64,000 nt of DNA from positions 141,750 through 205,749 of the forward strand of contig CAZTCI010000006.1 in NCBI GenBank assembly GCA_964612665.1, written 5' to 3'. The position numbers and the translations under genes are program-made. This document shows positions 21,551 through 45,536 of the stretch, piece after piece. The notes beneath the pieces were generated by a model. The model was not told the origin of the DNA and ran no database searches. It saw only the letters and a list, made by a program, of their open reading frames with translations. This DNA comes from an uncultured Planctomycetales bacterium (GTDB taxonomy: Bacteria; Omnitrophota; Gorgyraeia; Zapsychrales; JAHFFX01). Positions within the stretch are counted from its first letter, which is position 1. Every line of letters starts with the position of its first letter.

Positions 21551-22231
21551 TTGGTCCGACAAATGAAAAAAATTCACTATACATTCTTTATATTTCTTTT
21601 TTTCAGCTTTGTGGCCGCTGGCCAAGTGTTCTCCCAGGACAAGACTGCAATGGCACCGCTCCAAGATATTTCGATTCTTACCTCTTCCCATACCACTCCT
21701 AACAAATTAGATTCTTTTGATTCCCATAGTGCCGAATACACCATAGGTCCAGAGAATGTTCTACAAATCGATGTCTATTACGGCAAAGGAGACAAGATAT
21801 CGCAGAAAGTCCGCGTTTCTTCGCAAGGAACAATTGATTTCCCACTCGTTGGACAAGTAGAGGCCGGCGGCCTGACCGTTGCTCGCTTTCAGGAAAAGTT
21901 AAGAAAGTTATTAGAAAAAGACTTTCTCGTCGACCCGCAGGTCACGGTTTTCATAGAAGAATATAGTACTGTGTCAATAATGGGGGAAGTCAAGAAACCC
22001 GGCGTCTATCCGATTAAAGGCCGGTTGACGGTCGTAGAATTGATTTCTCTGGCGGAAGGATTTACAAAAATTGCTGCCCAAAACAAGGTAAAAGTCATTC
22101 ACACGAAGCCCGATGGGCAGAAAGAACAAATGGTGGCGCGTGTTTATGACTTCATGAACAAAAATGACGACCAAGCCAATGTCGTTTTATCTTCCGGTGA
22201 CGTTGTTATTGTCCCGGAAAGTTTATTTTAA
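21551..22231 (+). CDS. Polysaccharide export protein, Wza-like (Poly_export + SLBB domains)
   Basis: YTIGPENVLQIDVYYG...GTIDFPLVGQVEAGGLTVARFQEKL...VSIMGEVKKPGVYPIKGRLTVVELISLAEG. Confidence 0.8.
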   Translation: MVRQMKKIHYTFFIFLFFSFVAAGQVFSQDKTAMAPLQDISILTSSHTTPNKLDSFDSHSAEYTIGPENVLQIDVYYGKGDKISQKVRVSSQGTIDFPLVGQVEAGGLTVARFQEKLRKLLEKDFLVDPQVTVFIEEYSTVSIMGEVKKPGVYPIKGRLTVVELISLAEGFTKIAAQNKVKVIHTKPDGQKEQMVARVYDFMNKNDDQANVVLSSGDVVIVPESLF

Positions 22232-22241: not shown

Positions 22242-25200
22242 ATGCCTGATTTACATCCATCTGCACATGATCTTATCGAAATTGATTTTCAGGAAATCCC
22301 TAGAAAATTAGTAAAACACCGCAAAAAGATTATTTCAATTGTGGCCACGTGTGTGGTCTTGGCGGCGATCTTTTCTTTTAAGCAGACGCCAATCTACCGC
22401 GCGACGAGCCGAATCATGGTAGACAGTCAACCACCAAAGATTGTGAAGGTGGAAGAAGTTGTCCTGCCCGATTTTGCCGATCGCCCCAATTTTTTTAATT
22501 CCCAAATCGAAATCCTAAAAAGTCATACTTTGGCTGAGTTGGTTTTTCAAGATCTGGGCGGCTATGAGCCTTTAGATCGACGGGGAAAACCCGCAAACAA
22601 ACTTAAACCCATTACAACAGATGAGCGCATTGAGGCCCTCTTAAAACAAGTTAAGATTGCTCCAGTAAGAATGACGCAAATCATTGCTGTCAGTGTCGAA
22701 GACCCAGATCCGAAATTGGCGGCCAGCATTGCCAATAAATGGAGCCAGGCTTATGTGTTTTTTTCATCAGTTGATCAATTAATTCAACGACGCAGTGAAT
22801 TAGAATCGGATCTTAGTCAGCAATTAAAATTTTTGAAGAAGATGCATCCAGTTATTTTAGGGTTACAGAATCAAATCCAGATACTTAATGAAAAAATTGA
22901 CAACGAACGCAAGCGTTTGAGCAAGCAAGAAAATGTTTCGTATAATTCAATGTCATCCAGCGAAATTACGAACGTCAAAATTTTAGACCGCGCTCAAATT
23001 CCACTTAAACCTGTACGGCCTCAAAAAGCGCTCAATATTCTGTTGGGACTTATTTTTGGCGGATTCTTTGGTTTTGCCCTGGTGTTTTTATTGGAATCGT
23101 TCGATCAAACTTTCAAGACAGCCTCTGAGATCGAAAAGGTTCTCAAGATTTCTTGTCTAGCCTCTATTCCTTTAAAGAATGATAACTTTCCGGCGGAACA
23201 TGTTTCATCGAGGATTCGGGATTCCGGTTTCGCTGAATCGTTCCGGGGTTTAAGAACACGCATTATCTTTAGCGAACCTAACCTTTCGAAAAGGACATTT
23301 GTTGTGACGAGTGCTTCTCCGGGTGAAGGTAAAACTAGTGTGGCGGTCAATCTGGCCACGGTTTTCGCTCAAGCCAATGAACGCGTCTTACTTGTCGATG
23401 CCGACATGCGAAATCCAAGGGTGCATAAAGTTTTTAAAATGAAACGGTCAAAAGGAATCGCCGACATTCTGGCGAATCATAAAGAAGATATAGAATCGTT
23501 CATTCATGAAACTGATATCCCAGGATTAGAAATTTTAACCTGCGGAGAAGTGCTGTCGAATCCTTCTGAACTCCTTAGTTCGAAAAGGCTGAAAGATTTC
23601 ATAAACATATTATTGACAAGATATGACCGCATCATTTTCGATACACCACCGGTATTGGCAGCCACTGACGCGGTCGTTCTCGCGACCCGGGTAGACACAA
23701 CAATTTTAGTGATCAGCTCGGACATTACAACCCGTCAAGCGGCTATACGCTCTAAAGAGGCACTAACCTCTGTGCATGCGCCGATTTTAGGCGCTGTTTT
23801 TAATATGGTGAAGATGGATATGCACGGATACGATGCTTACAATTATTTTTATGAAGCTAATCTTCAAAAACAGACGGAGAAGAAACGGTTTACAGTTATT
23901 AAGGAAGGGACGTCTTTTATTCTTTTTCTGGCCGCTATGATGGCCGCCCCCTTGATGTACGGTTCTGTACATATGACTTCTCAACTAATCGTATCGCTTC
24001 TGGCTTTGCTGAGTTTTTATTTTATCCTCATGGCCAGGCCAAAGGCATTAAAGTCCGTGATGAATTCTTTTTTAACAATGTTAGGAATAGGTTTATTTAC
24101 TTTTGCGCTTTGTCAATTGATACCAATTCCATTAAATATAATTAAATTTCTCTCGCCGGCAGCCCATGATATTTACAATCGGTATTTGCCGGGAGGAGTT
24201 CAATCTAAACAATTAGTAACATTCTCTCTTTATCCTTCAGACACGTTGCGTGGCATTCTTCAATTTGTGCTTTACGCGTTGGTCTATATCATCACAAGAT
24301 TGTTTCTTTGGACAGATGAGAAAGATTTTCCATCAGTTCGTACCAAAATTCTCGAGCAAGCAAGATATTTAAAACTAAGCTGTTTGATCGGCGTTTTGTC
24401 GCTTCTTTTTCACAGCCTTTATGATTTCAACCTTCACATTCCTGCTAACGGAATGTTTTTTATGTTTCTGTTGGCCATTGCAACCGGAGGTCCAACGGAA
24501 AATTATGACCATGTCTTTTTCCGGCGGGCTGTGCATTTTATTGTCTTTTTTGGTTTTTCAATGGCTGTATTTGCCATTGTGCAGAGTTGGCTGTTTAACG
24601 GACACATATTTTGGGTCGGCATGCCGGCGCCCCACCCGGTAGGATCGTATTACAATTATGATCACTTCGCCGGTTTCATGGAACTGTGCAGCGCGGTCGC
24701 CGTTGGCATGTTCTTTGCGTCTTTTCTCTATATATCGTTTCCATCGAAGCGGAATAAAAATAAGATAAGTTGGCGGAACGCTCGGGAGCTTTATGTTTTT
24801 CTCGGATATTTATTAATGGCTTCCGTCATGATTTCGACGATTTTTCTCTCCACATCCCGCGGCGGCATCATGAGTTTTCTTTTAAGTCAGATTATTTTTC
24901 TTTTTTTGATATTTATAGCGGAAGGGGAAGCCAGTCGAAGGGCAAAGACCATAACGGCTATTGCAACGGTCATAGCGTTGAGCGCAGTGATTGTGGTTTG
25001 GCTGGGGCCCCAGGCCTTTTTGGAACGGTTTCATCTTTTATCTATACAAAACATTGTAAAAATGGAAGGACCTATTAATCCACGGTTAGCTTTTTATCAT
25101 GATACTCTGCGGGTTATTAAGGATTTTCCGATTTTTGGAAGCGGGTTGAACACTTTTGCCACGAACTTCACGCATTACCGTACATTTGATTACACGCCTA

Positions 25201-25334
25201 ATTTTTTGCGCTATACCCATAATGATTATCTTCAACTTGTTTCCGAAACCGGATTGGCAGGCATGATTTTTCTTTTTGCCTTTTTATTTTACTTCGTTTC
25301 ATGCACTCGCCGAGTGGTTAGAGAAATAAAATGA
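22242..25334 (+). CDS. Fusion protein: Wzz/GumC-type chain-length determinant + BY-kinase (Wzc-like, with C-terminal Tyr cluster) fused to a Wzy/O-antigen-ligase-like polytopic membrane domain
   Basis: Single uninterrupted 1030-codon ORF. Residues 1-540 have the Wzz TM helix, coiled region, second TM helix, Walker A SPGEGKTS, A' VDADMRNP, B IIFDTPPV and a Tyr cluster YDAYNYFYE. Residues about 560-1030 have about 10 TM helices and Wzy_C motifs TSRGG and HNDYLQLVSETGLAGM. Confidence 0.8.
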   Translation: MPDLHPSAHDLIEIDFQEIPRKLVKHRKKIISIVATCVVLAAIFSFKQTPIYRATSRIMVDSQPPKIVKVEEVVLPDFADRPNFFNSQIEILKSHTLAELVFQDLGGYEPLDRRGKPANKLKPITTDERIEALLKQVKIAPVRMTQIIAVSVEDPDPKLAASIANKWSQAYVFFSSVDQLIQRRSELESDLSQQLKFLKKMHPVILGLQNQIQILNEKIDNERKRLSKQENVSYNSMSSSEITNVKILDRAQIPLKPVRPQKALNILLGLIFGGFFGFALVFLLESFDQTFKTASEIEKVLKISCLASIPLKNDNFPAEHVSSRIRDSGFAESFRGLRTRIIFSEPNLSKRTFVVTSASPGEGKTSVAVNLATVFAQANERVLLVDADMRNPRVHKVFKMKRSKGIADILANHKEDIESFIHETDIPGLEILTCGEVLSNPSELLSSKRLKDFINILLTRYDRIIFDTPPVLAATDAVVLATRVDTTILVISSDITTRQAAIRSKEALTSVHAPILGAVFNMVKMDMHGYDAYNYFYEANLQKQTEKKRFTVIKEGTSFILFLAAMMAAPLMYGSVHMTSQLIVSLLALLSFYFILMARPKALKSVMNSFLTMLGIGLFTFALCQLIPIPLNIIKFLSPAAHDIYNRYLPGGVQSKQLVTFSLYPSDTLRGILQFVLYALVYIITRLFLWTDEKDFPSVRTKILEQARYLKLSCLIGVLSLLFHSLYDFNLHIPANGMFFMFLLAIATGGPTENYDHVFFRRAVHFIVFFGFSMAVFAIVQSWLFNGHIFWVGMPAPHPVGSYYNYDHFAGFMELCSAVAVGMFFASFLYISFPSKRNKNKISWRNARELYVFLGYLLMASVMISTIFLSTSRGGIMSFLLSQIIFLFLIFIAEGEASRRAKTITAIATVIALSAVIVVWLGPQAFLERFHLLSIQNIVKMEGPINPRLAFYHDTLRVIKDFPIFGSGLNTFATNFTHYRTFDYTPNFLRYTHNDYLQLVSETGLAGMIFLFAFLFYFVSCTRRVVREIK

Positions 25335-25735
25335 AGACAATGGTTGTACTTGTCAGTCTTATTTATTTTTTTGTTTTAATTTGTGTCGGCGCAGCAGAAA
25401 TAATTTCCAAACGAGCGGTAGCATCTCACGATATCCATCTTCTTAACGTCGCCCAACGGTTATACCCTTTTGTATCGGATTATTTTTATGCCGAATACCG
25501 TCTTAATGGCAATCTCAGCGCCCTAGTTCATGCGATGTCCCTTGAGCCTACGAAGCCGGCGTATCATATGTATTATGGACTGGCCCTTTTAAAACGTTTG
25601 CCGAGAAGACAAGCAACCGACCAAGAGGCCGTTACCGAAATTTGTAAGGCTGCTCAGTTGAAACCTTATAGCCAAGTTTATCGTTCAGCTTGCGAACAGT
25701 ATCGCGCCGCGATTCCGATTTCAACAGTTTTCTAA
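25331..25735 (+). CDS. Hypothetical secreted/membrane-anchored protein
   Basis: N-terminal hydrophobic helix MKTMVVLVSLIYFFVLICVGAA; no recognisable domain. Confidence 0.4.
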   Translation: MKTMVVLVSLIYFFVLICVGAAEIISKRAVASHDIHLLNVAQRLYPFVSDYFYAEYRLNGNLSALVHAMSLEPTKPAYHMYYGLALLKRLPRRQATDQEAVTEICKAAQLKPYSQVYRSACEQYRAAIPISTVF

Positions 25736-25746
25736 TTGAGAATATT

Positions 25747-27087
25747 ATGCCAATTAAGAGACTTAAGAAAATTCAGGAAAAATTTATTCCAAAAGGTTCT
25801 TTTAAAGCCAACGTGCTGATTTTGATGATAGGAACAGCTGTATCGCAAGTGATGTTGATTGCAATATCACCGATTTTGTCCCGTATCTTTTCTCCAGAGG
25901 ATTTTGGTATTTATGGTGTTTATGCCGGGATTATCGCGATTGTCTCGTCGGTAGTTGCTTTAAATTATGAGTTGGCCATCCTTCTGCCGAAACATGATGA
26001 AGAGGCGATCAATTTAGTGGCCTTATCGGTTATCGCCTGTCTTGGCATGGCTGTTCTGAGCGGATTAATTGTGTGGGTTGTTCCTTTTAAATTTATTTAT
26101 CCTGAAAATCCAAAAGCAATTTCATCATGGATATGGATACTACCTGTATCCGTGATCACCTTAGGTATATTGGCGATATTAGAGGCATGGTGCACGAGGA
26201 AAAAACTTTTCCAACAATCGAGTTGGGCAAAAATTCTGCGCTCATTCGTCACGGGTGGTTATCAGATTTTTTCCGGTTATAAAGACGGCGGATCTTTAGG
26301 GCTGATTTTTGGAGCGGTTTTGGGAACCATTGTTGCCTCCGTCGGAGTTGTTGTATTGGTGATGCAGCAGAATTTTAAGACTTATCTGCAGTCGCTTCGA
26401 TGGAAAAAGATCCGTTCTCTAGCAAAAAGATATATTGATTTCCCGGTTTATTCATCTTCACAGAATCTGTTAAACGCGGTGTCGATCAGCGCTCCAGCGT
26501 TTTTCTTGACCTATTTTTATGGAGTCAAGATCGCCGGGTTTTATCTTTTGGGTATCAAATTGATACAGGTTCCGGCTGATTTAGTGTCGCGTTCTTTTCG
26601 GCAAGTGTTTTATCAAAAAGCGGCCGAGGTCCATAATGAGCAAGGAGACCTTTATCAAATTTTTAAAAGATCAACGATCCATTTGTTAATGATTGCGATT
26701 GTGCCGTCGCTCATCATATTCTTTTTTGCACCGATGATATTCAAAATTTTCTTGGGGCAAAATTGGGAGACGGCCGGCGAGTATTCCAGGTGGCTCGTCG
26801 TTTGGATCTACGTTAATTTTGCCAATGTTCCAGCCATTTGCTGTTACCGGATTCTTAATCTTCAATCGCGTTTGTTTCAAATTTATTTCTTCTATCTTAT
26901 TTTCAGGGTTTCAGCTTTATTGCTGGGCGGGTTTTTCTTTTCAGCTCAAACTTCAATTGTTTTATTCTCTGCGGTTGGATTATTTTTTAACATCTTTATC
27001 ATTCTTTATATTTGGAAACATTTGGATAAGACCATCGTAAAAGATCTACATGCTACAAACAAATTGGCATTAGCTAATCTTGAATGA
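25747..27087 (+). CDS. Polysaccharide flippase, Wzx-like (MOP/oligosaccharide flippase family)
   Basis: About 12 predicted TM helices; N-terminus ANVLILMIGTAVSQVMLIAISPILSRIFSPEDFGIYGV typical of Wzx/RfbX. Confidence 0.75.
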   Translation: MPIKRLKKIQEKFIPKGSFKANVLILMIGTAVSQVMLIAISPILSRIFSPEDFGIYGVYAGIIAIVSSVVALNYELAILLPKHDEEAINLVALSVIACLGMAVLSGLIVWVVPFKFIYPENPKAISSWIWILPVSVITLGILAILEAWCTRKKLFQQSSWAKILRSFVTGGYQIFSGYKDGGSLGLIFGAVLGTIVASVGVVVLVMQQNFKTYLQSLRWKKIRSLAKRYIDFPVYSSSQNLLNAVSISAPAFFLTYFYGVKIAGFYLLGIKLIQVPADLVSRSFRQVFYQKAAEVHNEQGDLYQIFKRSTIHLLMIAIVPSLIIFFFAPMIFKIFLGQNWETAGEYSRWLVVWIYVNFANVPAICCYRILNLQSRLFQIYFFYLIFRVSALLLGGFFFSAQTSIVLFSAVGLFFNIFIILYIWKHLDKTIVKDLHATNKLALANLE

Positions 27088-27093: not shown

Positions 27094-28239
27094 TTGATGA
27101 AACGATTCTTCTGGGACAGCATATTTTTTCTTTTAATTATCACTTCATTTACGTTGAGTGCGATTAAAGGTTTCTCCAGCCTTTCAATCGTTTTTACGAT
27201 TCTTTTTTTGTTTGGAATGTTTGAGGGCAGAAAATTAATTTTTTATAGAGGTTTGATTTGGCCGACGATATTCTTAGTTTTTAATGCTTTATCTTTGTTA
27301 TGGGGCGGCGATTTGGAGGAAGTAAGCAAGGTCAGTTCAGCTGTCTTATTCGGGGTAGCTATCTTTATGGGATTAAAAACCGGAAAGAGGGTTCCGGTTT
27401 TAGTGGCGGCGTTGACGGTAAGCGCCATTGCCAATATTGTTCTTTCTTATGGGAACATGGCTGACTTTCAAGTGGATGAAGAAAGCCGGGTTTCGGGTTT
27501 ATTCGGCAATGCCAATGACGTGGCGGTTTTCTTATCCTTAGCGGCGTTTACTATTTATTTTTTGAGCAGCAAAAGAACATTGTTGATTAAGCTGATGACA
27601 TTTTCCATTTTGGCCTTTGTCTTTTTTTATACGGGCAGCCGGCAAGGATTATTTTTAGTTGTGTTTATCCTCGGAGCCATTTTCATTAATTATTACCGTG
27701 GGTTAAACACGGTGACTAAATTTTGGTTTTTACCGGTTTTTTTAGCTGTTCTATTGTGTTCGATGACTCTTTTACAGGTCGTTCAGAATTATTCAGAAGA
27801 TGTTATTGTCCTCAAGAGACTCGACACATTTTTAAGCGGTACTGAAAAAGGATCGGCCCAGACCCGTTCATTTATGATCGAGAAGGGGTTAACGCTGTGG
27901 CACGAAAAACCAATTTTAGGATGGGGCGCGGGAGGGTTCGCTCACAATAGTTATTTTGGTGTGTATTCGCATAATACGTATGTTGAACTATTAGTTAATT
28001 ATGGATTAGTCGGGTTTTGCCTTTATTTTGCTTTTTCGATTTACTTATTCATTAAGGGATGGGAAACGAGGCCAAATTCTTTTGCAAGCATCGGAATCCC
28101 TATTATTCTAATGCTTCTTGTTGTCGGCATGTGGGCGGTGATGTTTCGATCCAAGACGGGTTGGTTGTTTTTAGGAATAGCGGCGTATTGTGTGTCTTTG
28201 CGTGACAGTATGGTCACTGAAGCAAGGAGAATCGAGTGA
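27094..28239 (+). CDS. O-antigen polymerase/ligase family membrane protein (Wzy_C domain)
   Basis: Polytopic; YTGSRQG and AHNSYFGVYSHNTYVELLVNYGLVGF match the Wzy_C signature. Confidence 0.7.
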   Translation: MMKRFFWDSIFFLLIITSFTLSAIKGFSSLSIVFTILFLFGMFEGRKLIFYRGLIWPTIFLVFNALSLLWGGDLEEVSKVSSAVLFGVAIFMGLKTGKRVPVLVAALTVSAIANIVLSYGNMADFQVDEESRVSGLFGNANDVAVFLSLAAFTIYFLSSKRTLLIKLMTFSILAFVFFYTGSRQGLFLVVFILGAIFINYYRGLNTVTKFWFLPVFLAVLLCSMTLLQVVQNYSEDVIVLKRLDTFLSGTEKGSAQTRSFMIEKGLTLWHEKPILGWGAGGFAHNSYFGVYSHNTYVELLVNYGLVGFCLYFAFSIYLFIKGWETRPNSFASIGIPIILMLLVVGMWAVMFRSKTGWLFLGIAAYCVSLRDSMVTEARRIE

Positions 28240-29366
28240 AGATCTCATTAGTTTTACCTGATTTTGCCGGCGGCGGAGCCGAAAGAGTTTTTACAACCTT
28301 GGCCAGAGAATTTGTCGAACGTGGCCATGATGTTGATTTGGTGATTGCTAATAATAACAATCCCGCGTATCTGCATTTGATTCCAGCGCAGGTGCGCATT
28401 ATTGATCTGAAAGCCGCGCGCATGCGGCAAAGTCTTTCTTCATTAATCAAATATTTCCGTCAGCATCAACCGGATGTTGTCATGGCGACCCGGCTTCATT
28501 CGTGTTGTTTTGTTGTTTTAGCAAAAATATTTTCCGGTATTAACACCAAAGTGGTGTTAAGAGAAGCTAACACGCCTTCTTCTGATTTAAACAAATATGC
28601 TCGGTCAAAGCGGTTGCTATTAACATCGTTTGTAAGATTTTTATATCCATTGGCAGATGCGATCATTTGTGTTTCACAAGGTGCGGTTAATGACACTAAA
28701 GAATTTATAAAAACTGCCAGCGGGAAAGTCCATTTGATTTATAATCCAGTTTTGACCGAAGACCTTTTTATCGACGCGGCTAAGCCGTGTGAACATCCAT
28801 GGTTTTCTAAAAATACAATTCCAGTGATTGTGAGCGTCGGCAGGTTATCTTCGCAGAAAAGATTTGATGTTCTGATCAAAGCGTTTGCGGTTGTCCACAA
28901 GCGCAGACCTGTACGCCTATTAATATTGGGGGATGGAGGAGATCGTCCAGCCCTTCAATCTTTGATCATGAGTTTGAATTTGCAAGATGATGTCAGTTTA
29001 CCGGGATTTGATTCTAATCCTTTTAGATTTATGGCCAACGCAGATCTTTTTGTTCTTTCATCGGCATGGGAAGGACTGCCCGGTGCTTTGATCCAAGCGC
29101 TGGCTTGTGGCTGCCCGGTTGTCAGCACTGATTGTCCGAGCGGACCGCGGGAAATATTAAAAGCCGGACGTTTAGGTAAACTTGTGCCGGTCAACGATAG
29201 TGAAGCCATGGCCAAGGCGATTGAGGAAACCCTTGACCAAAAACCTCGACGGATTTCTCAAGAAGACCTGAATGAATATACGGTGGACCAGGCCATCGAC
29301 CGCTATCTACGCATTTTTGGTTTGTCTAACAGGGAGATGGCACCATGCGCGATATCAAAGAGTTAG
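28236..29366 (+). CDS. Glycosyltransferase family 4
   Basis: MKISLVLPDFAGGGAERVF... N-terminus and C-terminal EGLPGALIQALACGCPVVSTD (Glycos_transf_1). Confidence 0.85.
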   Translation: MKISLVLPDFAGGGAERVFTTLAREFVERGHDVDLVIANNNNPAYLHLIPAQVRIIDLKAARMRQSLSSLIKYFRQHQPDVVMATRLHSCCFVVLAKIFSGINTKVVLREANTPSSDLNKYARSKRLLLTSFVRFLYPLADAIICVSQGAVNDTKEFIKTASGKVHLIYNPVLTEDLFIDAAKPCEHPWFSKNTIPVIVSVGRLSSQKRFDVLIKAFAVVHKRRPVRLLILGDGGDRPALQSLIMSLNLQDDVSLPGFDSNPFRFMANADLFVLSSAWEGLPGALIQALACGCPVVSTDCPSGPREILKAGRLGKLVPVNDSEAMAKAIEETLDQKPRRISQEDLNEYTVDQAIDRYLRIFGLSNREMAPCAISKS

Positions 29367-30319
29367 TTGTTCTTTCCAAAGATTTCTTGAAATTTGTAAG
29401 CGGTAAAGATTATTCGCGTCAGCCGCAGCCTTTGGGAAAATATTTTGAAGATCCGCGCTGTTATTACAACGATTTACGCGGTAAATCAGTTTGGAGAGGA
29501 TCAGTTATCGACGGCGTTCCCGCTTTAAAACTAGCTTCGACGGGTGGATTATTATTATTTCCCATTGACATATTTTTGTATGGACTCGGGAGCCTGGACC
29601 GCTATTTCTTTGATAAAGATTCTTCTGTAATGGAAAGAATCACCACTGTGGCAGTTTGGATGACGAATGCTATTGGTGCAGACGGAAGCTTTGATGAAAA
29701 GTGGAAGGAGATGAGTCCGCATCAAGAATTTTATTCGAATAACAGCGGCATGGGCCAAGGATTAGCTTTGTCTTTTGCGATAAGAGTTGTGAAATACAAT
29801 CTCTGCAGCGCAGAAGTAAAAACTCGCCTTGAAGACGTCATTGAGAGAGTAAAAAATAACATGTTGCTGCCCGTTGCGCAAGGCGGCACACGTTTTGATA
29901 CAAGTACGAGAGGCGTTGCTTTCTTGGAATTCCCCCGCAAAGATGGGAATATTGTTTTGAACGGATGGATTTTTGCGGTCTTTGGGCTTTATGATTATTT
30001 AAACTATAAAAAAGATTCTGAAGTGGAAAAAGTATACCAGTTAACGCTTAACACCATGGAAGCCATGCTGCCTGACTACCATCTGCCGAACGGGTGGGCC
30101 ATTTATGACAACATGAACAGGATTTGTTCTCCTTTTTATCAAGATCTTCATATTTCTTTAATAGAGGCCATGTATAAAATCACTAATAAAGAAATCTTCG
30201 GCCAATATCTGGAAAAAGCCAGAAAAGCGAACACCGCGGTTAATCGTTTGTATTTCACCTCAAATAAGATTATGGAGAAATTGTTTAAAGATAAAGAAGC
30301 TTATGTCAGCGCTGAATGA
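29345..30319 (+). CDS. D-glucuronyl C5-epimerase C-terminal-domain-like ((alpha/alpha)6 toroid) protein
   Basis: Segments NNSGMGQGLALSFAIRV and IVLNGWIFAVFGLYDYLNY resemble the SAMGQGQA... and ...VLNGFMYSLIGLYDL... blocks of animal glucuronyl C5-epimerase as I recall them. Confidence 0.4.
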   Translation: MRDIKELVVLSKDFLKFVSGKDYSRQPQPLGKYFEDPRCYYNDLRGKSVWRGSVIDGVPALKLASTGGLLLFPIDIFLYGLGSLDRYFFDKDSSVMERITTVAVWMTNAIGADGSFDEKWKEMSPHQEFYSNNSGMGQGLALSFAIRVVKYNLCSAEVKTRLEDVIERVKNNMLLPVAQGGTRFDTSTRGVAFLEFPRKDGNIVLNGWIFAVFGLYDYLNYKKDSEVEKVYQLTLNTMEAMLPDYHLPNGWAIYDNMNRICSPFYQDLHISLIEAMYKITNKEIFGQYLEKARKANTAVNRLYFTSNKIMEKLFKDKEAYVSAE

Positions 30320-30356: not shown

Positions 30357-31556
30357 ATGCAGGAAAAATTACTTGTATACATTACTGCTTTTATCCCATT
30401 TGGGAAAACAGAAAGCTTTGTTCTGGAAGAGGGGTTCGCTCTTAAGAACCTCTATAAGAATTTTTTAATTATCCCTCGCAATCCGCCGAAAGAAATCTTC
30501 CATCAAAAGGGCAAACAGCTTCGCGATAATGCCATTTGGCTGCCGCTTTTTAATTTAAAAATTATATTCAATTTTTTGATGGCTTTGTTTTCACCGCGCG
30601 TTTGGGCTGTGATTGGAGCGATTGTCCGCCATTCGAGAAATTTTAAGACCTGCCTAAAGAATTTTGTGGTTTTGCCAAAGACGCTTTACGTTATTCGTTT
30701 GTTAAAGGAGCGTAATGTGGGACACATTCACGCACACTGGGGAAGTACAACCGCCACTATGGCCTATATTATTCATAGACTGATAGGGATTCCCTATAGC
30801 TTTACTCTCCATCGATGGGATATCTATGAAAATAATATGTTAAGGGAGAAGGTTCAGATGGCCAGTTTCGTTAGATGTATTTCGCAAAAAGGAAAGGATG
30901 ATGTTTTGACTATAGTCGGGCACGATCTGAAAGATAAAGTTCATGTCGTGCATATGGGTGTGGATTTGCCGTCTATTGATCTTCCAGATGAACTGCATAA
31001 GCCGTTCATTATGATGATTCCCGCAAACCTGCTTCCAGTCAAAGGGCACCGATATCTTATTTCGGCATGCCAGCGATTAAAGATCAAAGGTTTTAATTTT
31101 AAATGTTATATCGCCGGCGATGGGCCTTTGGAAACCGAATTGAAAAAAATGGTCCAGGACCGCGGGCTGACAAGTGAGGTTTTGTTTTTAGGGCGCTTGC
31201 CGCATGAGCAGATTATTGAGATGTATAAGGATCATTTGGTCGATATGGTAATTCTTCCTAGTATTAATTCCGATGCTGGAGATATGGAAGGGATTCCGGT
31301 GGCGTTAATCGAGGCAATGTCTTACGGGATCCCGGTTATATCGACGGACACGGGTTCTATTTCAGAATTAATCAGCGATCACTGCGGCATTAAAGTTCCG
31401 GAGAAGAACAGCGAATTGTTAGCGGAAGCTATTGAAAAGCTCGTGAGAGACCCGGAATATTATGGACGGATCAGCGTTGGAGGGCGGAAAAAAGTTGAGA
31501 ATGAATTCCAGCGCTCCTCGATTTCGGCCGCATTAATTAGTTTAATCGGTACTTAA
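30357..31556 (+). CDS. Glycosyltransferase family 4
   Basis: C-terminal EGIPVALIEAMSYGIPVISTDTGSISELI (Glycos_transf_1). GGGAGGAAG RBS upstream of the ATG at 30357; the ORF track starts at 30303. Confidence 0.75.
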   Translation: MQEKLLVYITAFIPFGKTESFVLEEGFALKNLYKNFLIIPRNPPKEIFHQKGKQLRDNAIWLPLFNLKIIFNFLMALFSPRVWAVIGAIVRHSRNFKTCLKNFVVLPKTLYVIRLLKERNVGHIHAHWGSTTATMAYIIHRLIGIPYSFTLHRWDIYENNMLREKVQMASFVRCISQKGKDDVLTIVGHDLKDKVHVVHMGVDLPSIDLPDELHKPFIMMIPANLLPVKGHRYLISACQRLKIKGFNFKCYIAGDGPLETELKKMVQDRGLTSEVLFLGRLPHEQIIEMYKDHLVDMVILPSINSDAGDMEGIPVALIEAMSYGIPVISTDTGSISELISDHCGIKVPEKNSELLAEAIEKLVRDPEYYGRISVGGRKKVENEFQRSSISAALISLIGT

Positions 31557-31557
31557 G

Positions 31558-32421
31558 ATGTCTTTTGAAGAATTTATTAAATCCTTTGCCGGGATTTTTG
31601 TCAGAATCACCGGAATAAGCTTTCTTATGCGTGAGGTCGTCTTAAGGAACAAAAGCTCTATTTTATGTTATCACAATCCGTCGGCCCAGCGTTTTAGACA
31701 GCACTTAAAGTATCTTACGAAAAGATACAACATTATTCCTTTGGAGACTTTGACTGAAGCCATCAAAAGCAAGGATTGGTCAGCCATTCCTCCGAAAAGC
31801 TTAGTGATCACTTTTGATGACGGCTTAAAAGAGAATTACGATTTGGTGGCGGTTCTACGTGAATTTCAAATCCCAGTGACGCTTTATTTGTGCAGCGACA
31901 TTATTAACACCAACCGTCATTATTGGTTTTTAACGGGCGTTTCCAATGTTCAAGAGCTGAAGCGCCGCACGACTGAAGAGCGCTTGGCTGTTTTAAAACA
32001 AACCGTGGATTATGAACCGATGAAGGAATACGCTCATCGTCAGGCTTTGAACTTACAGGAAATCAAAGAGATGACAACTCATTTCAACTTTGGGTCGCAC
32101 ACACGTTTTCATCCGATTCTGCCTAAATGCGGTGATGCGGAAAGTTTAGAAGAAATTAAAGGATCTAAAGAATCTTTAGAAAAAATTTTGAAGCGCCCTG
32201 TTCGGCATTTTTCTTATCCCAACGGTGATTTTGGTGACCGGGAAATTGCTTATGTAAAGCAAAGCGGATATGCGTCGGCTGTTACCATGAAGATGGGATG
32301 CAATGATATTAATTCCAATTTATTGTGTTTAAAAAGAGTCGGTATCTCAGACAGGGCTTCCATAAATGAACTCGCCGCAGAGATGACTTGGCTTTTAACT
32401 TGCTTAAGGCGATTTAATTAG
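31558..32421 (+). CDS. Polysaccharide deacetylase (NodB homology, CE4)
   Basis: LVITFDDGLKENYDLVAVLREFQIPVTLYL; HTRFHP His motif. Confidence 0.75.
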   Translation: MSFEEFIKSFAGIFVRITGISFLMREVVLRNKSSILCYHNPSAQRFRQHLKYLTKRYNIIPLETLTEAIKSKDWSAIPPKSLVITFDDGLKENYDLVAVLREFQIPVTLYLCSDIINTNRHYWFLTGVSNVQELKRRTTEERLAVLKQTVDYEPMKEYAHRQALNLQEIKEMTTHFNFGSHTRFHPILPKCGDAESLEEIKGSKESLEKILKRPVRHFSYPNGDFGDREIAYVKQSGYASAVTMKMGCNDINSNLLCLKRVGISDRASINELAAEMTWLLTCLRRFN

Positions 32422-32435: not shown

Positions 32436-33473
32436 ATGTTCACCAATTACGTTTCTATTATTATTCCTTGCCGCAATGAAGAAAGGCACATTCAAGCGTG
32501 TCTCGATTCGATCCTGGAACAGGACTATCCGAAAGACCAGTTAGAAATTTTGGTGGCTGATGGAATGAGCACGGATAAAACCCGCGACATATTGAAAAGA
32601 TATGCGGCCCAATATCCATTCATCCGGTGGTTTGATAATCCTCAGAAGATTGTTCCCACCGGGCTTAATGTTTTAATCAGAGAGGCCAAAGGAAACATCA
32701 TTATCCGCATGGACGCGCATACCGATTATCTTGAGGATTATGTGTCTCAATGTGTTCATCATCTCATGGAAAGCCAGGTTGATAATGTCGGCGGAATTTG
32801 TGTCACATTGCCTGAATCCAACTCTCCAGTTGCCCAAGCTATTGCATTGGCTTTATCAAGTCCGTTTGGTGTTGGTAATTCTTCTTTTAGAATCGGCGTC
32901 AGTGAGCCGCAGCTCGTCGATACCGTTCCTTTTGGATGTTTTAAACGTGAAGTGTTTGACAGGATTGGGTTGTTTGACGAAGATTTGGTACGCAATCAAG
33001 ATGATGAACTTAACTCGCGTTTAATTAAAAGCGGAGGGAAAATCCTTCTCGTCCCAAAGATTGTTTCAAAATATTACGCGCGTGGTTCTTATAAAAAATT
33101 GTGGAGGATGTATTTTCAATACGGCTATTTTAAACCTTTGACGATCGTGAAACTGGGTGGCGTGATGACTTGGCGGCAGTTGATTCCAGCATTGTTTATC
33201 AGCTCGCTTATATTTTGGGGAATAACATCGTTGTTTTCTCCTTTCTGTCAGTGGCTTTTCTTTTTGGAAGGTGGGTTGTATATCCTCGGGAATTTGGCCG
33301 CTTCACTGGGTCTCGCTCTTCGTCGAGGAATTCTTCTTTTACCTTATTTGATGGCGGCTTTTCTGGTGATACATTTTGGATATGGACTTGGTTATATGAA
33401 AGGAATTTATCATTTTCTCATTCTTAAACGGCATCTAAAAAACAAAGTGAACGATATGGCGCTTAGCCGTTAA
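32436..33473 (+). CDS. Glycosyltransferase family 2 with C-terminal membrane anchor helices
   Basis: VSIIIPCRNEERHIQACLDSILEQDYPKDQLEILVADGMSTD... DxD-type GT-A fold and four C-terminal TM helices. Confidence 0.8.
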   Translation: MFTNYVSIIIPCRNEERHIQACLDSILEQDYPKDQLEILVADGMSTDKTRDILKRYAAQYPFIRWFDNPQKIVPTGLNVLIREAKGNIIIRMDAHTDYLEDYVSQCVHHLMESQVDNVGGICVTLPESNSPVAQAIALALSSPFGVGNSSFRIGVSEPQLVDTVPFGCFKREVFDRIGLFDEDLVRNQDDELNSRLIKSGGKILLVPKIVSKYYARGSYKKLWRMYFQYGYFKPLTIVKLGGVMTWRQLIPALFISSLIFWGITSLFSPFCQWLFFLEGGLYILGNLAASLGLALRRGILLLPYLMAAFLVIHFGYGLGYMKGIYHFLILKRHLKNKVNDMALSR

Positions 33474-33506: not shown

Positions 33507-34664
33507 ATGCATCGATTCATCCCATTTCACAGAGGTTACGTAGGCAAAGAGGAAATTAATAATGTCATCGAGGTCATTAAATCCGGATGGCATACGATGG
33601 GGCCGAAAACAGCCCTGTTTGAAGAAGAGTTTAAAAAATATACCGGAGCGAAGTTTGCTATTTCGGTTAACTCCTGTACCGCTGCTTTACATCTGGCGCT
33701 AGAGGCGATCGGCCTTAAAGAAGGGGATGAAGTTTTAGTCCCCGCGATTACATTCACGGCTTCCGCGGAAGTCGTTTGTTATTTTAAGGCCAAGCCGGTT
33801 TTTGTTGATGTCGAACGCGCCACGATGAATATCAACCCCCGAAAGATCGAAGAAAAAATTACGCCCAAAACACGGGCCATCATCACCGTCGATTTTTCCG
33901 GCCAGCCGGTTGATTATGACGAAATCAGGACAATTGCCCGCAAGCATAAACTGTTCACTATCGAAGATGCCGCTCATACACTGCCCTCATCCTATAAGGG
34001 AAAAAGGGTAGGAACGTTGGCGGACATCACTTGTTTTAGCTTTTATGCTACGAAAACCTTAAACACCGGCGAAGGTGGAATGATTACAACCGAAAATCCT
34101 GACTGGGCCGCCCGGATGAAAACGATGCGTCTGCACGGTATGAACAAAGACGCCTGGAAAAGATATACCAAAGAAGGCAGCTGGTTTTATGAGGTCGTCG
34201 GCGCTGGGTTCAAATACAACACAACTGATTTGAACGCCGCTTTGGGTCTTGCTCAGCTTGAGCGTTTAGAATGGATGAGAGAAAAACGCGCCGCGATGGC
34301 TGAAGCTTATACAAAGGCTTTTAGTCCTTTACCAGAAATCATAACGCCGACGGTCAAACCGGACCGCGAGACAAGCTGGCATCTGTATGTAATCAAACTT
34401 GATCTAGAAAGATTAGCAATCGACCGCAATACGTTTATTGAAAAATTATCAGCATGCGGGATTGGAACTAGCGTGCATTTTATTCCGGTTTATCGTCATC
34501 CTTTTTATCGAGACTCTTTTAAATTAAAAGCGAAGGACTGGCCGGATAGCGAATGGGTTTATGGACGGATTCTGTCGCTTCCAATATATCCTGGTCTTAC
34601 CAAGAAAGAGATTCAATATATCATTGCTTCTATGAAGAAACTCGTCGAGGAAAATAGAAAGTAA
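33507..34664 (+). CDS. DegT/DnrJ/EryC1/StrS-family PLP-dependent sugar aminotransferase
   Basis: GWHTMGPKTALFEEEFKKYTGAKFAISVNSCTAALHLAL...; the PLP Lys is in FSFYATKTL. Confidence 0.85.
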   Translation: MHRFIPFHRGYVGKEEINNVIEVIKSGWHTMGPKTALFEEEFKKYTGAKFAISVNSCTAALHLALEAIGLKEGDEVLVPAITFTASAEVVCYFKAKPVFVDVERATMNINPRKIEEKITPKTRAIITVDFSGQPVDYDEIRTIARKHKLFTIEDAAHTLPSSYKGKRVGTLADITCFSFYATKTLNTGEGGMITTENPDWAARMKTMRLHGMNKDAWKRYTKEGSWFYEVVGAGFKYNTTDLNAALGLAQLERLEWMREKRAAMAEAYTKAFSPLPEIITPTVKPDRETSWHLYVIKLDLERLAIDRNTFIEKLSACGIGTSVHFIPVYRHPFYRDSFKLKAKDWPDSEWVYGRILSLPIYPGLTKKEIQYIIASMKKLVEENRK

Positions 34665-34665: not shown

Positions 34666-35289
34666 ATGATGTACAGAAATTTTGGGAAACGTTTGATGGA
34701 TCTGTGTTTATCTTTGATTGGATTAGTCGTGTCTATTCCGATTTTTGTGATTGTTCCACTGCTGATTAAGGTCGATTCACCGGGCACTGTTTTTTTTCGG
34801 CAAAAAAGAATGGGCCGTGACGGAGGTTTTTTTGATCTGATCAAATTCCGCACCATGGCCGCCGATAAGGAAAGAGAGCGAAATGGTTTTGAACCCGGTT
34901 CGTCTTTACGGGTCACTAGGGTTGGAAAAATTTTACGTAAAACAAAGTTAGATGAAATTCCCCAACTGTTAAATGTTTTTATGGGACAGATGAGTTTTGT
35001 GGGGCCGCGTCCTGAGGTTGCGCGATACAAAGATTTTTATACGGGAAAGTTTGCTCAAGTCTTAAGCGTTCGTCCAGGAATAACAGACCGCGCGTCGATT
35101 AAGTATCGTCATGAAGAAGAAATTTTGGCCCGAAGCAACGATCCGGAAAAAACCTATCGAGAAATCATATTGCCGGACAAGTTAGGGATTGCTTTGTCGT
35201 ACATTAACAATGGCATTAGTCTCGGGGAAGACATTGACATTGTATTTCAAACTCTCCTAGCAATTGGAAAAGGAAAAAATGAACACTAA
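34666..35289 (+). CDS. Initiating phosphoglycosyl (sugar) transferase, small PglC/WbaP-C-like
   Basis: KRLMDLCLSLIGLVVSIPIFVIVPLLIKVDSPGTVFFRQKRMGRDGGFFDLIKFRTM...PQLLNV..GQMSFVGPRP. Confidence 0.85.
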   Translation: MMYRNFGKRLMDLCLSLIGLVVSIPIFVIVPLLIKVDSPGTVFFRQKRMGRDGGFFDLIKFRTMAADKERERNGFEPGSSLRVTRVGKILRKTKLDEIPQLLNVFMGQMSFVGPRPEVARYKDFYTGKFAQVLSVRPGITDRASIKYRHEEEILARSNDPEKTYREIILPDKLGIALSYINNGISLGEDIDIVFQTLLAIGKGKNEH

Positions 35290-37195
35290 AATCAAAGAGA
35301 TTATACTCCGTTATCGAAGGCAGCTGATCATTTTGGTCCATTTTTTTATATTTGTGGCCGCGTATATTTTATCGGTCATGCTGCGGTTCGATTTTGACGT
35401 CCCGGCTTCTGAATTGCCGGGCTTATATAAAGGGTTTCCTTTAATCATTGAAACGCAAATGCTGATTTTTGCGGCGCTCAATCAATATAAAGGATTTTGG
35501 CTCTATGTTTCCGTTAAGGATCTGATTCAGTTGACAAGGGCTAATATTATTGCCTCGCTTATTATTTTCATTGCTTTTCTGGGTTTAGGATGGGAATTTT
35601 TTCCTCGTTCTATTTTTTTGTTAGATTTTATTTTATCTTTGGGAATGACCTGCGCGGTCAGGGTTTTTTGCAAATTTTTAAGAGAAACGTGGCATCGCAG
35701 AAATTTTTCTTCCAAAGACCATAATATTCTTATCGTCGGAGCGGGTTACGCTGGTGTGCGGCTTTTAAAAGAGATACGCCGCAATCCAAGCATGGGCACA
35801 GTGATTGGATTTGTCGACGACGATCCTAAAAAAGCCGGTGAAATAATTCAAGATGTCAGGGTTCTTGGGAACCGAAAAAGAATTCCAGTCATCGTTCAGA
35901 ATGATCAAGTGGACGAAATTATTCTGTCAATTCCTTCTGCCAAGGGTGAAGTGGTTCGGGACATTTTAAGTTATTGTGAACAAACTCCTGCCAAAATCCG
36001 GATTTGCCCGAGTTTAGATAAAGTGATAACCGGAGTCAGCGAAGTTCGGCCGCGTAACGTTTTGCCCGACGATCTTTTGGGCCGTAAGACAGTTCAAATT
36101 AATTCCGATGATATCAAGGGATATATTAAAGACCGGGTTGTTTTGGTGACTGGCGCCGGAGGTTCGATCGGATCTGAAATTTGCCGTCAAGTCGCGGCGT
36201 TTGGTCCTAAGGAACTTATTCTTCTGGATCATCATGAGAATTTTGTTTATTTCTTGACTGTTGAATTCAAAAGCAAATATCCGAATCTTCACGTATCGAC
36301 CGTTATTGGAGACATCCGTGATGTGGGGTTATTAAAAAATCTGTTTATGAAAAAGCGTCCTCAGGTTGTTTTTCACGCCGCAGCACACAAACATGTTCCA
36401 CTTATGGAAGACAGCCCTGTTGCAGCGGTTAAAAACAATATTTTCGGCAGCCGGAACATGATTTATGCTTCAGAACATTACAACGTCGAACGTTTTGTGT
36501 TGATATCGACGGACAAAGCGGTGAACCCAATCAATACGATGGGCATGTCTAAGCGCGTGGCGGAAATCATTCTTCAATCCAGAGCACAAAAGAGTTATAC
36601 GAAATTTATGGTAGTCCGTTTTGGAAATGTTCTAGGGTCGGCGGGGTCGGTGGTTCCGCTCTTTAAAAAACAGATTGAAGAGGGCGGACCGATTACCGTG
36701 ACTCATCCTGACGTGAAGCGATATTTCATGAGCATTAAAGAAGCGGTCTTGCTGGTTTTACAGGCGGGAGCAATCGGCAAAGGTGGAGAACTTTTTATTC
36801 TTGATATGGGTGAACAGATTAAAGTCGTTGAAATCGCGAAAAATCTTTTGGCGCTCTCCGGCTATCGTTTGGATAAAGATATTAAAATCAAATTTACCGG
36901 TCTGCGTCCTGGAGAAAAGCTTGAAGAAGAAATTCTGCTGGATAAAGAAAAAGACCTTGTGACGAAACATAATAAAATTTTTATGAGTCCCAACGGGGTA
37001 GTTATTAACCGTCGAGATTTACACAAGACCCTTAAAAGATTATACCGGATGGCTGAATTGATGGATGAAAAAGGTATTCGTAGTCTTCTAAAAGATATTA
37101 TTAGTATGGGCAATGGAGTCAATTTGCCTCTTGAGAATATCGAAGAGAATTATGTTTCAGCATCGGCCTCTTTAGCTGAAAGTCATCGACAATAA
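35279..37195 (+). CDS. Membrane-bound UDP-GlcNAc 4,6-dehydratase-type polysaccharide biosynthesis protein (PglF/CapD/WbpM family)
   Basis: Four N-terminal TM helices, then Rossmann VLVTGAGGSIGSE and YxxxK-type SDR catalytic region (...NVLGSAGSVVPLF). The ATG at 35279 lies inside the track ORF that starts at 35264. Confidence 0.85.
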   Translation: MNTKIKEIILRYRRQLIILVHFFIFVAAYILSVMLRFDFDVPASELPGLYKGFPLIIETQMLIFAALNQYKGFWLYVSVKDLIQLTRANIIASLIIFIAFLGLGWEFFPRSIFLLDFILSLGMTCAVRVFCKFLRETWHRRNFSSKDHNILIVGAGYAGVRLLKEIRRNPSMGTVIGFVDDDPKKAGEIIQDVRVLGNRKRIPVIVQNDQVDEIILSIPSAKGEVVRDILSYCEQTPAKIRICPSLDKVITGVSEVRPRNVLPDDLLGRKTVQINSDDIKGYIKDRVVLVTGAGGSIGSEICRQVAAFGPKELILLDHHENFVYFLTVEFKSKYPNLHVSTVIGDIRDVGLLKNLFMKKRPQVVFHAAAHKHVPLMEDSPVAAVKNNIFGSRNMIYASEHYNVERFVLISTDKAVNPINTMGMSKRVAEIILQSRAQKSYTKFMVVRFGNVLGSAGSVVPLFKKQIEEGGPITVTHPDVKRYFMSIKEAVLLVLQAGAIGKGGELFILDMGEQIKVVEIAKNLLALSGYRLDKDIKIKFTGLRPGEKLEEEILLDKEKDLVTKHNKIFMSPNGVVINRRDLHKTLKRLYRMAELMDEKGIRSLLKDIISMGNGVNLPLENIEENYVSASASLAESHRQ

Positions 37196-39554: not shown

Positions 39555-40118
39555 ATGTCCTTCATGAGTTCAGCCACAAATTTTTTCACATCCAAAATGA
39601 ACGACGCGCTGGGCTGGGCGCGCAAATATTCTATTTTTCAATATCCTTTCGTAACGGCGTGCTGCGGCATGGAATATATGTCAACCGCGGCCGGTCATTA
39701 TGATGTCGACCGTTTCGGCGCCGGCTTCCCCCGTTTTTCCCCTAGGCAATCCGATGTCCTTTTTGTCGTCGGAACAATCAGCCATAAAATGGCACCCGTC
39801 CTTAAAACTGTTTATGACCAAATGTGTGAACCGAAATGGGTTGTCGCTTTCGGCGTCTGTACTTGTACCGGCGGATTTTATGATAATTACGCGACGGTAA
39901 TGGGCATCGATACGATTATTCCCGTTGATATTTATATTCCCGGCTGTCCGCCCCGTCCGGAAAATGTTTTGGATGGTCTTATGAAGCTTCAAAATAAAAT
40001 TCAGCGTGGGGAACAATCCCGGACGCTTTATGATCCCCGGACAAAAATTGGCAGGCCTGCCGAATTACAGCAAGGTTATTCCGTCCAGCAGCACATAAAA
40101 CATATAGAATCCACATGA
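39555..40118 (+). CDS. nuoB: NADH-quinone oxidoreductase subunit B
   Basis: CCGMEYM, GVCTCTGG, PGCPP cluster N2 ligands. Confidence 0.9.
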   Translation: MSFMSSATNFFTSKMNDALGWARKYSIFQYPFVTACCGMEYMSTAAGHYDVDRFGAGFPRFSPRQSDVLFVVGTISHKMAPVLKTVYDQMCEPKWVVAFGVCTCTGGFYDNYATVMGIDTIIPVDIYIPGCPPRPENVLDGLMKLQNKIQRGEQSRTLYDPRTKIGRPAELQQGYSVQQHIKHIEST

Positions 40119-40609: not shown

Positions 40610-40613
40610 AATG

Positions 40614-40730
40614 ACCAATAACCAAGATACAAACACCAAACAAATTCCAATATCCAAATTCGAATCTTCATTGGTTTGTGAATTGAATATTGAAATTTGG
40701 TAATTGTTTGGTGTTTGTATCTTGGTTATT
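40614..40730. repeat. 117-nt near-perfect palindromic element between nuoC and nuoD
   Basis: accaataaccaagatacaaacaccaaacaa at 40614-40643 versus aattgtttggtgtttgtatcttggttatt at 40702-40730, with a second nested inverted repeat (ccaaattc / gaaatttgg) in the loop. Confidence 0.75.
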
Positions 40731-40745
40731 AAATATTCTAAAGAT

Positions 40746-42068: not shown

Positions 42069-42176
42069 TAGACGAATAGACACAAGTAGAAATTCTAACG
42101 TGTGTCATGTGTCTGGCGTCTTGTGTCCTTAAAAGTTTAGGAGGCTTTTATTTCTACGAAGACTCTAATTCCAGAA

Positions 42177-42617: not shown

Positions 42618-42621
42618 ACCT

Positions 42622-45505: not shown

Positions 45506-45536
45506 AATTGTTGTAGAAATGTCACTTATCGTTGGT

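Follow-up and report, generated by a model that had tools for sequence, protein, structure and literature searches.

What does a relative of the animal D-glucuronyl C5-epimerase (GLCE) do inside a bacterial polysaccharide locus, and at which stage of glycan assembly would it act? The question is raised by a gene at positions 29345-30319 (+ strand) of a 64,000-nucleotide stretch of an Omnitrophota genome (contig CAZTCI010000006.1 of assembly GCA_964612665.1), the whole of which is called the window below. L-Iduronic acid (L-IdoA) and other L-hexuronates are rare, strain-specific parts of microbial surface glycans, and the enzymes behind them have hardly been characterised, with one bacterial GLCE homologue assayed, on animal substrate only. 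The gene of the window encodes a true GLCE-family homologue, reduced to the helical barrel and probably active as a hexuronyl C5-epimerase. We consider it reasonably likely that this barrel works in the cytoplasm, where it would epimerise a hexuronate on the lipid-linked repeat unit during Wzx/Wzy-dependent assembly of an exopolysaccharide (EPS).

The open reading frame (ORF) begins with ATG, encodes 324 amino acids (aa) and has exactly the coordinates of the original prediction, which had recognized at this site two sequence blocks mirroring GLCE and had named a PF06662 profile search and a structural alignment to GLCE as checks. A GGGAG Shine-Dalgarno sequence lies 8 nt before the start codon, within the 3' end of the preceding gene for a GT4-family glycosyltransferase (GT). 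Both the family and the blocks have been confirmed. The match to PF06662 (C5-epim_C) scores 91.4 bits (E=6.4e-26), where the gathering threshold is 23.3, and the same domain is present in 52/52 relatives of the protein; the NCBIfam models gave no match. In a single-sequence search of the PDB sequences the sole matches were human and zebrafish GLCE, and a profile made of 51 family sequences likewise matched GLCE alone (E=4.6e-29 and 7.7e-27). Three shared blocks can be read directly in the query/GLCE alignments, namely NSGMGQGLALS / SAMAQGQAIS, FLEFP...IVLNGWIFAVFGLYDY / YEEYP...FVLNGFMYSLIGLYDL and NGWAIYD...SPFYQDLHI / GSGTIYD...WDYHTTHI. Together with the Pfam match they stand well above chance level and identify the protein as a true GLCE-family homologue rather than a barrel of the AGE type.

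The structural comparison agrees. The AlphaFold2 (AF2) model of the protein (pLDDT 95, pTM 0.93) is nearly all-helical by DSSP, and the eight best Foldseek matches are all GLCE (E 3e-9 to 2e-8, root-mean-square deviation (rmsd) 2.7-3.5 A, about 220 columns); the helical barrel superimposes on the C-terminal domain of GLCE more closely than on any other barrel. The best match outside GLCE is cellobiose 2-epimerase (E 4e-4, rmsd 5.8 A), and the likeness to the AGE superfamily, comprising this enzyme and N-acylglucosamine 2-epimerase, is distant (Foldseek E about 4e-4, rmsd 5-6 A, 11-13% identity), with differing catalytic residues. The original prediction had named as its own refutation a protein that maps to AGE or other (alpha/alpha)6 barrels lacking the catalytic Tyr and Glu. 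Such an identity is ruled out, as the protein has no sequence-level match to these families and its structural matches to them are 10^5-fold weaker than those to GLCE.

The catalytic set of human GLCE consists of E499, Y500, N510, Y560 and Y578 (PMC13308652); Tyr578 is the base that abstracts H5 and Glu499 reprotonates the sugar from the opposite face (PMC12834895). The HMMER alignments place E195, F196, N206, Y254 and Y265 of the query at these positions, so four of the five residues are kept, among them the proposed proton-transfer pair (Y265 and E195) and the equivalents of Asn510 and Tyr560 (N206 and Y254). All four are invariant in 51/51 members of the clade. Among 77 genome-derived homologues, N206, Y254 and Y265 are invariant (77/77) and the equivalent of E195 is Glu in 72/77, the five exceptions resembling one-residue alignment shifts. 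The fifth position, that of the catalytic Tyr500, is variable: the 51-member clade has Phe in 18, Tyr in 18 and another residue in 15 members, and the genome-derived set has Tyr in 43, Phe in 11 and another residue in 23. Tyr is found in 21/27 loci with a UDP (uridine diphosphate)-sugar dehydrogenase gene near the epimerase vs 22/50 others (Fisher p=0.008, without phylogenetic correction), and Phe occurs in three of the dehydrogenase-linked loci too. Since Tyr and Phe interchange among close relatives with the same gene order, the Tyr500 hydroxyl is probably non-essential, and the sequences suggest that it is dispensable in these bacterial enzymes; F196 is still a real departure from the animal enzyme.

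This departure raises the possibility that the protein is inactive as an epimerase and represents an altered barrel, such as a lyase, a hydrolase or a binding or scaffold protein. Tyr500 is deemed crucial in human GLCE, and the AF2 model has weak similarity to the barrels of GH105/GH88 unsaturated glucuronyl hydrolases, PL10 and GH76 (E 1e-3 to 1e-2). We regard this explanation as improbable, however. The proposed acid/base pair and two more residues are invariant, pointing to strong purifying selection over a range of 25-100% identity, and Phe is as frequent as Tyr among the close relatives in syntenic loci and recurs next to dehydrogenase genes. The best hydrolase or lyase match is 10^5-fold weaker than the match to GLCE, and a cytoplasmic degradative enzyme would be unlikely in the middle of a biosynthetic operon.

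The resemblance to the animal enzyme has clear limits. GLCE and the query have in common PF06662, the alpha-helical barrel fold and the equivalents of Glu499, Asn510, Tyr560 and Tyr578, but they are only about 16-19% identical, measure 617 aa vs 324 aa and differ at Tyr500. The family-profile alignment spans the helical C-terminal domain of GLCE only; a second, individually non-significant stretch pairs the bacterial N-terminal segment YYND...PI.ILQYGLG (query residues 37-91) with the GLCE helix segment preceding the beta-sandwich. Animal GLCE has an N-terminal beta-hairpin dimerisation domain, a beta-sandwich and a Golgi membrane anchor, whereas the 324-aa protein lacks all three. The epimerase carries neither a signal peptide nor a transmembrane segment (maximum 19-residue Kyte-Doolittle mean 1.58, no hydrophobic N-terminus) and its conserved domain starts at residue 1, for which reasons it is predicted to be soluble and cytoplasmic, unlike animal GLCE, which is luminal.

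The surrounding genes form a Wzx/Wzy-dependent heteropolysaccharide cluster of the EPS or O-antigen type, with all genes between 20315 and 37195 on the + strand (Table 1). The GT4 and deacetylase genes that the original prediction had placed around the epimerase are indeed there by Pfam, and the same gene order is found in relatives with 69% and 63% identical epimerases (loci L082 and L083). The aminotransferase gene and the PglC-type and PglF-type genes predict an initiating sugar of the bacillosamine (QuiNAc4N, N-acetylated diaminotrideoxyglucose) type, and the repeat unit is expected to comprise about four sugars, since three GTs add to the initiating one. In the Wzx/Wzy pathway, the repeat units must be flipped by Wzx before Wzy can polymerise them, and the polymer exists only in the periplasm.

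These features bear directly on the level of action proposed originally, at which the finished polymer would be epimerised, as by animal GLCE or the alginate epimerases AlgG/AlgE, giving a glycosaminoglycan (GAG)-like EPS. Animal GLCE and the only assayed bacterial homologue do act on polymers, and the adjacent deacetylase loosely recalls NDST, which precedes GLCE. Nevertheless, polymer-level action is disfavoured because the enzyme is predicted to be cytoplasmic, with neither signal peptide nor membrane anchor, because Wzy acts after the flip in the periplasm, and because the gene is wedged between coupled GT genes; we judge it very improbable. The proposed GAG-like nature of the product has been abandoned as well. 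Heparosan, chondroitin and hyaluronan types of locus were considered and rejected in favour of a Wzx/Wzy route with a PglC-type initiator, two GT4 enzymes and a GT2, which together imply a repeat unit other than a GAG disaccharide. The locus has neither a GAG synthase nor a KfiA/KfiC-type GT pair with ABC (group 2) or synthase-dependent export, and no ABC capsule exporter. No match to sulfotransferase families was found among the locus proteins and no NDST-like enzyme is present, the deacetylase being of the NodB type (Polysacc_deac_1); a UDP-glucose 6-dehydrogenase, as expected in or near a bacterial GAG capsule locus, was not found within the 64 kb, nor was a UDP-sugar dehydrogenase in close syntenic loci. 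As the locus encodes neither of the two enzymes required, synthase and sulfotransferase, there can be no N-sulfated heparosan here to serve as a substrate. The pairing of deacetylase and epimerase by analogy with NDST and GLCE was also considered and is unsupported, since the two genes co-occur only in the four closest loci, where the deacetylase is kept (the syntenic L082 and L083/84); the link drawn originally is thus confined to these.

A regularity that extends across the family points to a different stage. Gene neighbourhoods were compared in 84 loci, from which 1,219 neighbouring ORFs were extracted and clustered, and positional counts of GTs were taken over 76 independent loci. A Glycos_transf_1 GT lies immediately upstream on the same strand in 56/76 loci (74%, binomial p=2e-33) and a GT immediately downstream in 44/76 (58%, binomial p=4e-20), against a background in which such GTs make up 13% of the ORFs in these neighbourhoods; 34/76 loci have a GT on both flanks, and the median intergenic distance is 2 nt. 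This GT-epimerase-GT position is the strongest family-wide regularity, and the window conforms to it. The 3' end of the upstream gene, for GT4a (best NCBIfam match PglJ, 172 bits, under its cutoff), overlaps the epimerase start by 22 nt. The downstream ORF, for GT4b, opens at 30303 and has its likely start at the ATG at 30357, after a GGGAGGA Shine-Dalgarno sequence, leaving a gap of 37 nt; the public gene call for GT4b is 399 aa. Elsewhere in the family, a Glycos_transf_1 subfamily of about 380 aa (cluster c4, in loci L002-L081) has 29/38 of its members directly upstream of the epimerase, the GT stop and epimerase start usually overlapping or abutting (e.g. L022:8757-9899), and from this arrangement c4 looks like a dedicated partner GT of the epimerase in Bacillota and Bacteroidota loci. 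Genes for TupA-like ATP-grasp proteins and pyruvyl-transferases are also recurrent neighbours.

The tight linkage to GTs equally fits the supply of a donor sugar, and the main rival to action on the lipid-linked unit is action on UDP-D-glucuronic acid (UDP-GlcA). In this scheme, UDP-GlcA or another UDP-hexuronate would be converted to its UDP-L-epimer in the cytoplasm and the L-sugar then transferred by a GT. The protein is soluble and cytoplasmic by prediction, and it has neither of the elements that border the long substrate cleft in GLCE, the beta-sandwich and the dimer partner. A review of E. coli O-antigens lists the homologue Gae as the C5-epimerase in a proposed pathway to UDP-L-IdoA, although, according to the same review, the pathway has no experimental basis (PMC7685785). 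All GLCE-family enzymes assayed so far, including that of Bermanella, act on glycan-bound GlcA, and genes for sugar nucleotides tend to be grouped with the dehydrogenase gene supplying them, whereas none is found here. On balance, epimerisation at the UDP level appears unlikely.

Epimerisation of the lipid-linked unit, the scheme that we favour, can be laid out as follows. The PglF-, PglE- and PglC-like enzymes would make a 4-amino-4,6-dideoxy-N-acetylhexosamine of the bacillosamine type and load it onto undecaprenyl phosphate, and GT4a, GT4b and the GT2 would build the lipid-linked sugar up into a repeat unit some four sugars long. A D-hexuronate residue would be introduced on the way, most likely by GT4a, the product of the translationally coupled upstream gene. 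Before the unit leaves the cytoplasmic face, and while it is attached to the lipid, the epimerase would abstract H5 of this residue with Y265 as the base, and E195 would reprotonate it from the opposite face to yield the L-epimer, which for a GlcA substrate would be L-IdoA. Extension of the epimerised product by the next GT would pull the reversible reaction forward, after which Wzx would flip the unit, Wzy would polymerise it and the Wzc-, Wza- and EpsL-like proteins would export the polymer. Within this scheme we infer the enzymatic activity, the identity of the uronic acid, the lipid-linked stage and the coupling to the downstream GT.

Several points weigh against this reading. The literature contains no assayed short (about 320 aa) bacterial member of the family, and that on E. 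coli proposes UDP-GlcA as the substrate instead (PMC7685785). The query carries Phe196 in place of the catalytic Tyr500, and in human GLCE the Y500F exchange is used to inactivate the enzyme (bioRxiv 10.1101/2024.11.25.625114). Finally, no source of the uronate is visible nearby: Pfam scans, which in the window covered nearly all ORFs of at least 120 aa, gave no UDP-sugar (UDP-glucose/UDP-ManNAc) 6-dehydrogenase there or in any of the 13 loci with epimerases sharing 36% or more identity with the query, and a custom hidden Markov model, built from 30 dehydrogenases neighbouring other family members, detected none when run on all six reading frames of these sequences. In hexuronyl C5-epimerases and lyases, abstraction of the C5 proton relies on the C6 carboxylate. 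With this requirement and no local dehydrogenase, an active enzyme must have its uronate supplied from another part of the genome, where a UDP-sugar dehydrogenase may be encoded. Across the family, a Pfam-confirmed UDPG_MGDP_dh-family gene lies within 9 kb of the epimerase in 29/84 loci, all of them in a more distant clade with epimerases 25-34% identical to the query.

The difference between the two clades leaves room for another substrate. This alternative concerns the identity of the sugar and can be combined with any level of action: the enzyme would convert N-acetyl-D-mannosaminuronic acid (D-ManNAcA) to the L-gulo epimer (L-GulNAcA), or D-galacturonic acid (D-GalA) or its N-acetylamino derivative (GalNAcA) to the L-altro forms (L-AltA or AltNAcA), and the EPS would contain an L-hexuronate other than IdoA. 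L-GulNAcA in the Vibrio polysaccharide (VPS) of V. cholerae has been proposed to arise by C5 inversion of ManNAcA by an enzyme yet to be assigned (PMC3901696), and Raedts et al. expected, in 2011, paralogues of differing specificity (PMC3068255). A gene for the UDP-GlcNAc (N-acetylglucosamine) 2-epimerase WecB occurs near the epimerase in 14 loci, including L004 and L005 from near-clade Planctomycetota, and the position equivalent to Y500 is occupied differently in the near clade and in the dehydrogenase-linked one. On the other side, the only chemical correlations available for the family involve IdoA, and neither WecB nor WecC is encoded within the 64-kb window. We therefore hold a substrate other than GlcA to be somewhat unlikely.

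An IdoA product is plausible, as a reasonable guess by analogy with related systems. L-IdoA occurs in the O-antigens of E. coli O112ab and S. boydii 15, the clusters of which include a gene for a 323-aa PF06662 protein (PMC3068255; PMC7685785), and the O-antigen of P. haloplanktis KMM 223 combines IdoA, GlcA and QuiN4N (diaminotrideoxyglucose). By its description, this Gae protein of E. coli O112ab and Shigella boydii type 15 is, like the query, a single-domain protein encoded in a Wzx/Wzy cluster; it belongs to a gammaproteobacterial lipopolysaccharide, with UDP-GlcA proposed as substrate, whereas the query belongs to an Omnitrophota EPS. When E. coli genomes were probed for gae with the DNA of a Photobacterium homologue, no match was obtained. 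The only assayed bacterial GLCE homologue, RED65_08024 of Bermanella marisrubri (Raedts et al. 2013), is a PF06662 protein that converts GlcA to IdoA in vitro (PMC4432689; PMC12834895), its substrate being polymer-bound GlcA (PMC4432689); it is described as 448 aa long with a longer N-terminus than the query and has been assayed only on animal-type polymers. A functional analogue of the proposed lipid-linked reaction is Agl32 (VNG1058H) of Halobacterium salinarum, which epimerises GlcA within a dolichol-phosphate-linked tetrasaccharide and requires the flanking sugars (PMC13308652; PMC12624080). Agl32 resembles AGE-family enzymes and lacks every GLCE catalytic residue (PMC13308652), whereas the query is a clear member of the GLCE family.

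The original prediction held bacterial homologues to be rare, a view that does not survive a broader search. The family profile, run against 1.84 billion representatives of 50% identity clusters, matched 5,111 clusters at E<=1e-3, 3,644 at E<=1e-10 and 778 at E<=1e-30, with lengths mostly of about 300-330 aa among the top matches listed. Two narrow peptide patterns alone recovered 113 species-level genomes from at least 10 phyla, including Planctomycetota, Omnitrophota, groups of the candidate phyla radiation (CPR), Bacillota, Bacteroidota, Actinomycetota, Chlamydiota, Acidobacteriota, Vibrionaceae and one Methanosarcinales archaeon. Prokaryotic PF06662 genes and their association with glycosyltransferases had already been tabulated by Raedts et al. 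in 2011 (PMC3068255), and NCBI names such proteins 'D-glucuronyl C5-epimerase family protein'. By itself, the gene is an expected annotation, already made by standard pipelines, and a fairly ordinary bacterial relative of animal GLCE in a family catalogued since 2011.

The position of these genes suggests a more general proposal, which we advance tentatively and rate below even chances: the short (about 320 aa) prokaryotic GLCE barrels may form a distinct functional class that epimerises, in the cytoplasm, a hexuronate of the undecaprenyl diphosphate-linked repeat unit in an obligatory relay with two translationally coupled GTs and does so without the Tyr500 hydroxyl. Within such a class, one GT could add the D-uronate and the next could recognize only the L-form, locking the product. 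The subclade of Omnitrophota and Planctomycetota, with no linked dehydrogenase and with Phe or a variable residue at the Tyr500 site, could act on a uronate other than GlcA.

Table 1. Predicted genes of the polysaccharide locus in the window, in order of position
Feature	Position	Strand	Basis
EpsL-like outer-membrane beta-barrel (BBP2_2)	20315..21544	+	BBP2_2 1e-18; weak EpsL match
Wza-type polysaccharide export protein	21551..22231	+	Poly_export 2.2e-20, SLBB
Wzc-like chain-length regulator/tyrosine autokinase fused to C-terminal Wzy_C	22242..25334	+	Wzz, GNVR, AAA_31, Wzy_C; tyrosine autokinase families
Small ORF, 134 aa	25331-25735	+	no Pfam/NCBIfam match
Wzx (MOP) flippase	25690..27087	+	Polysacc_synt_3 1.1e-20; MOP flippase family
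Wzy-type repeat-unit polymerase	27094..28239	+	Wzy_C 3.5e-15
GT4a, PglJ/PglH-like GT4 glycosyltransferase	28236..29366	+	Glycos_transf_1 3.6e-35, Glyco_transf_4 4.3e-22
Probable minimal GLCE-type hexuronyl C5-epimerase, (alpha/alpha) barrel only, 324 aa	29345..30319	+	PF06662, GLCE profile, AF2/Foldseek
GT4b, EpsE/WcaL-like GT4 glycosyltransferase	30357..31556	+	Glycos_transf_1 8.3e-36; EpsE 185 bits, under cutoff
NodB-type polysaccharide deacetylase	31558..32421	+	Polysacc_deac_1 3.5e-19; no obvious signal peptide
GT2 glycosyltransferase	32436..33473	+	Glycos_transf_2 7.9e-24
DegT/PglE/PseC-type sugar 4-aminotransferase	33507..34664	+	DegT_DnrJ_EryC1 6e-129; PseC 376 bits, under cutoff 423
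Small PglC-type polyprenyl-phosphate sugar-phosphate transferase, initiating enzyme	34666..35289	+	Bac_transf 1.4e-52; EPS_sugtrans C-terminal domain
PglF/WbpM/CapD-type membrane UDP-GlcNAc 4,6-dehydratase	35264..37195	+	Polysacc_synt_2 5.9e-115, CoA_binding_3; best NCBIfam PseB

Some details of the locus supplement the table. The Wzc-like fusion is 1030 aa long, its Wzy_C part being a membrane domain of the O-antigen ligase/polymerase kind, and a second, stand-alone Wzy_C protein follows downstream as the Wzy-type polymerase; the fusion is also found in L082 (1028 aa) and L083 (1012 aa). The small ORF keeps its position between the Wzc fusion and Wzx in the same two loci (141 aa and 129 aa, respectively). 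L082 (GCA_016307145.1, contig JADMIO011019993.1), whose epimerase is the 69% identical one, is the closest long syntenic relative and encodes a hexapeptide acetyltransferase (PglD-like) with no counterpart in the window. The contig numbers of its assembly run past one million, which suggests a metagenome or the assembly of a host genome that includes bacterial contigs. For the deacetylase, the public gene call places the start at 31627. Directly before the export genes, a gene at 17761-19737 (+) encodes a 658-aa beta-helix protein with Big_7 and fn3 domains, the N-terminus of which is weakly pectate-lyase-like (PelN/Pel9A/DUF1565, about 100 residues matched); lyase activity on a polysaccharide, if the protein has it, would be a hint that the polymer contains uronate, the match being weak.

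Elsewhere in the window, a dense block of two-component signalling genes (1232-6751), encoding several response-regulator receiver proteins, two histidine kinases and a CBS-domain protein, lies shortly before the transport and EPS region. The genes of complex I (nuo) are divided over 39555-54409, with a nuoB-to-I-like set on the + strand (39555-47352), a Na+/H+ exchanger gene after it (47393-48559), and antiporter-like subunits and nuoJ on the - strand (48609-54409); the NuoD of the window is 84-92% identical to proteins from metagenome-assembled genomes of Candidatus Omnitrophota, which places the source in that phylum. A gene at 55136-58534 (+), with a MarR regulator gene upstream, encodes a 1132-aa fusion of an MFS transporter, an acyltransferase and an AMP-binding (acyl-ACP synthetase-like) domain, a triple architecture of the LplT-Aas type for lysophospholipid recycling.

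The gene described here provides a clear example of a minimal GLCE-type barrel from Omnitrophota, an uncultivated phylum of the PVC (Planctomycetota-Verrucomicrobiota-Chlamydiota) group, and opens to test the generalisation that minimal bacterial epimerases are cytoplasmic and encoded between two tightly coupled GT genes. It bears on the level at which the bacterial enzymes act, whether on UDP-sugars, lipid-linked oligosaccharides or polymers, and the GT-epimerase-GT arrangement, combined with the apparent dispensability of Tyr500, makes this question directly testable. Small soluble barrels of the GLCE type may, in addition, be of interest for the chemoenzymatic synthesis of heparin and IdoA.

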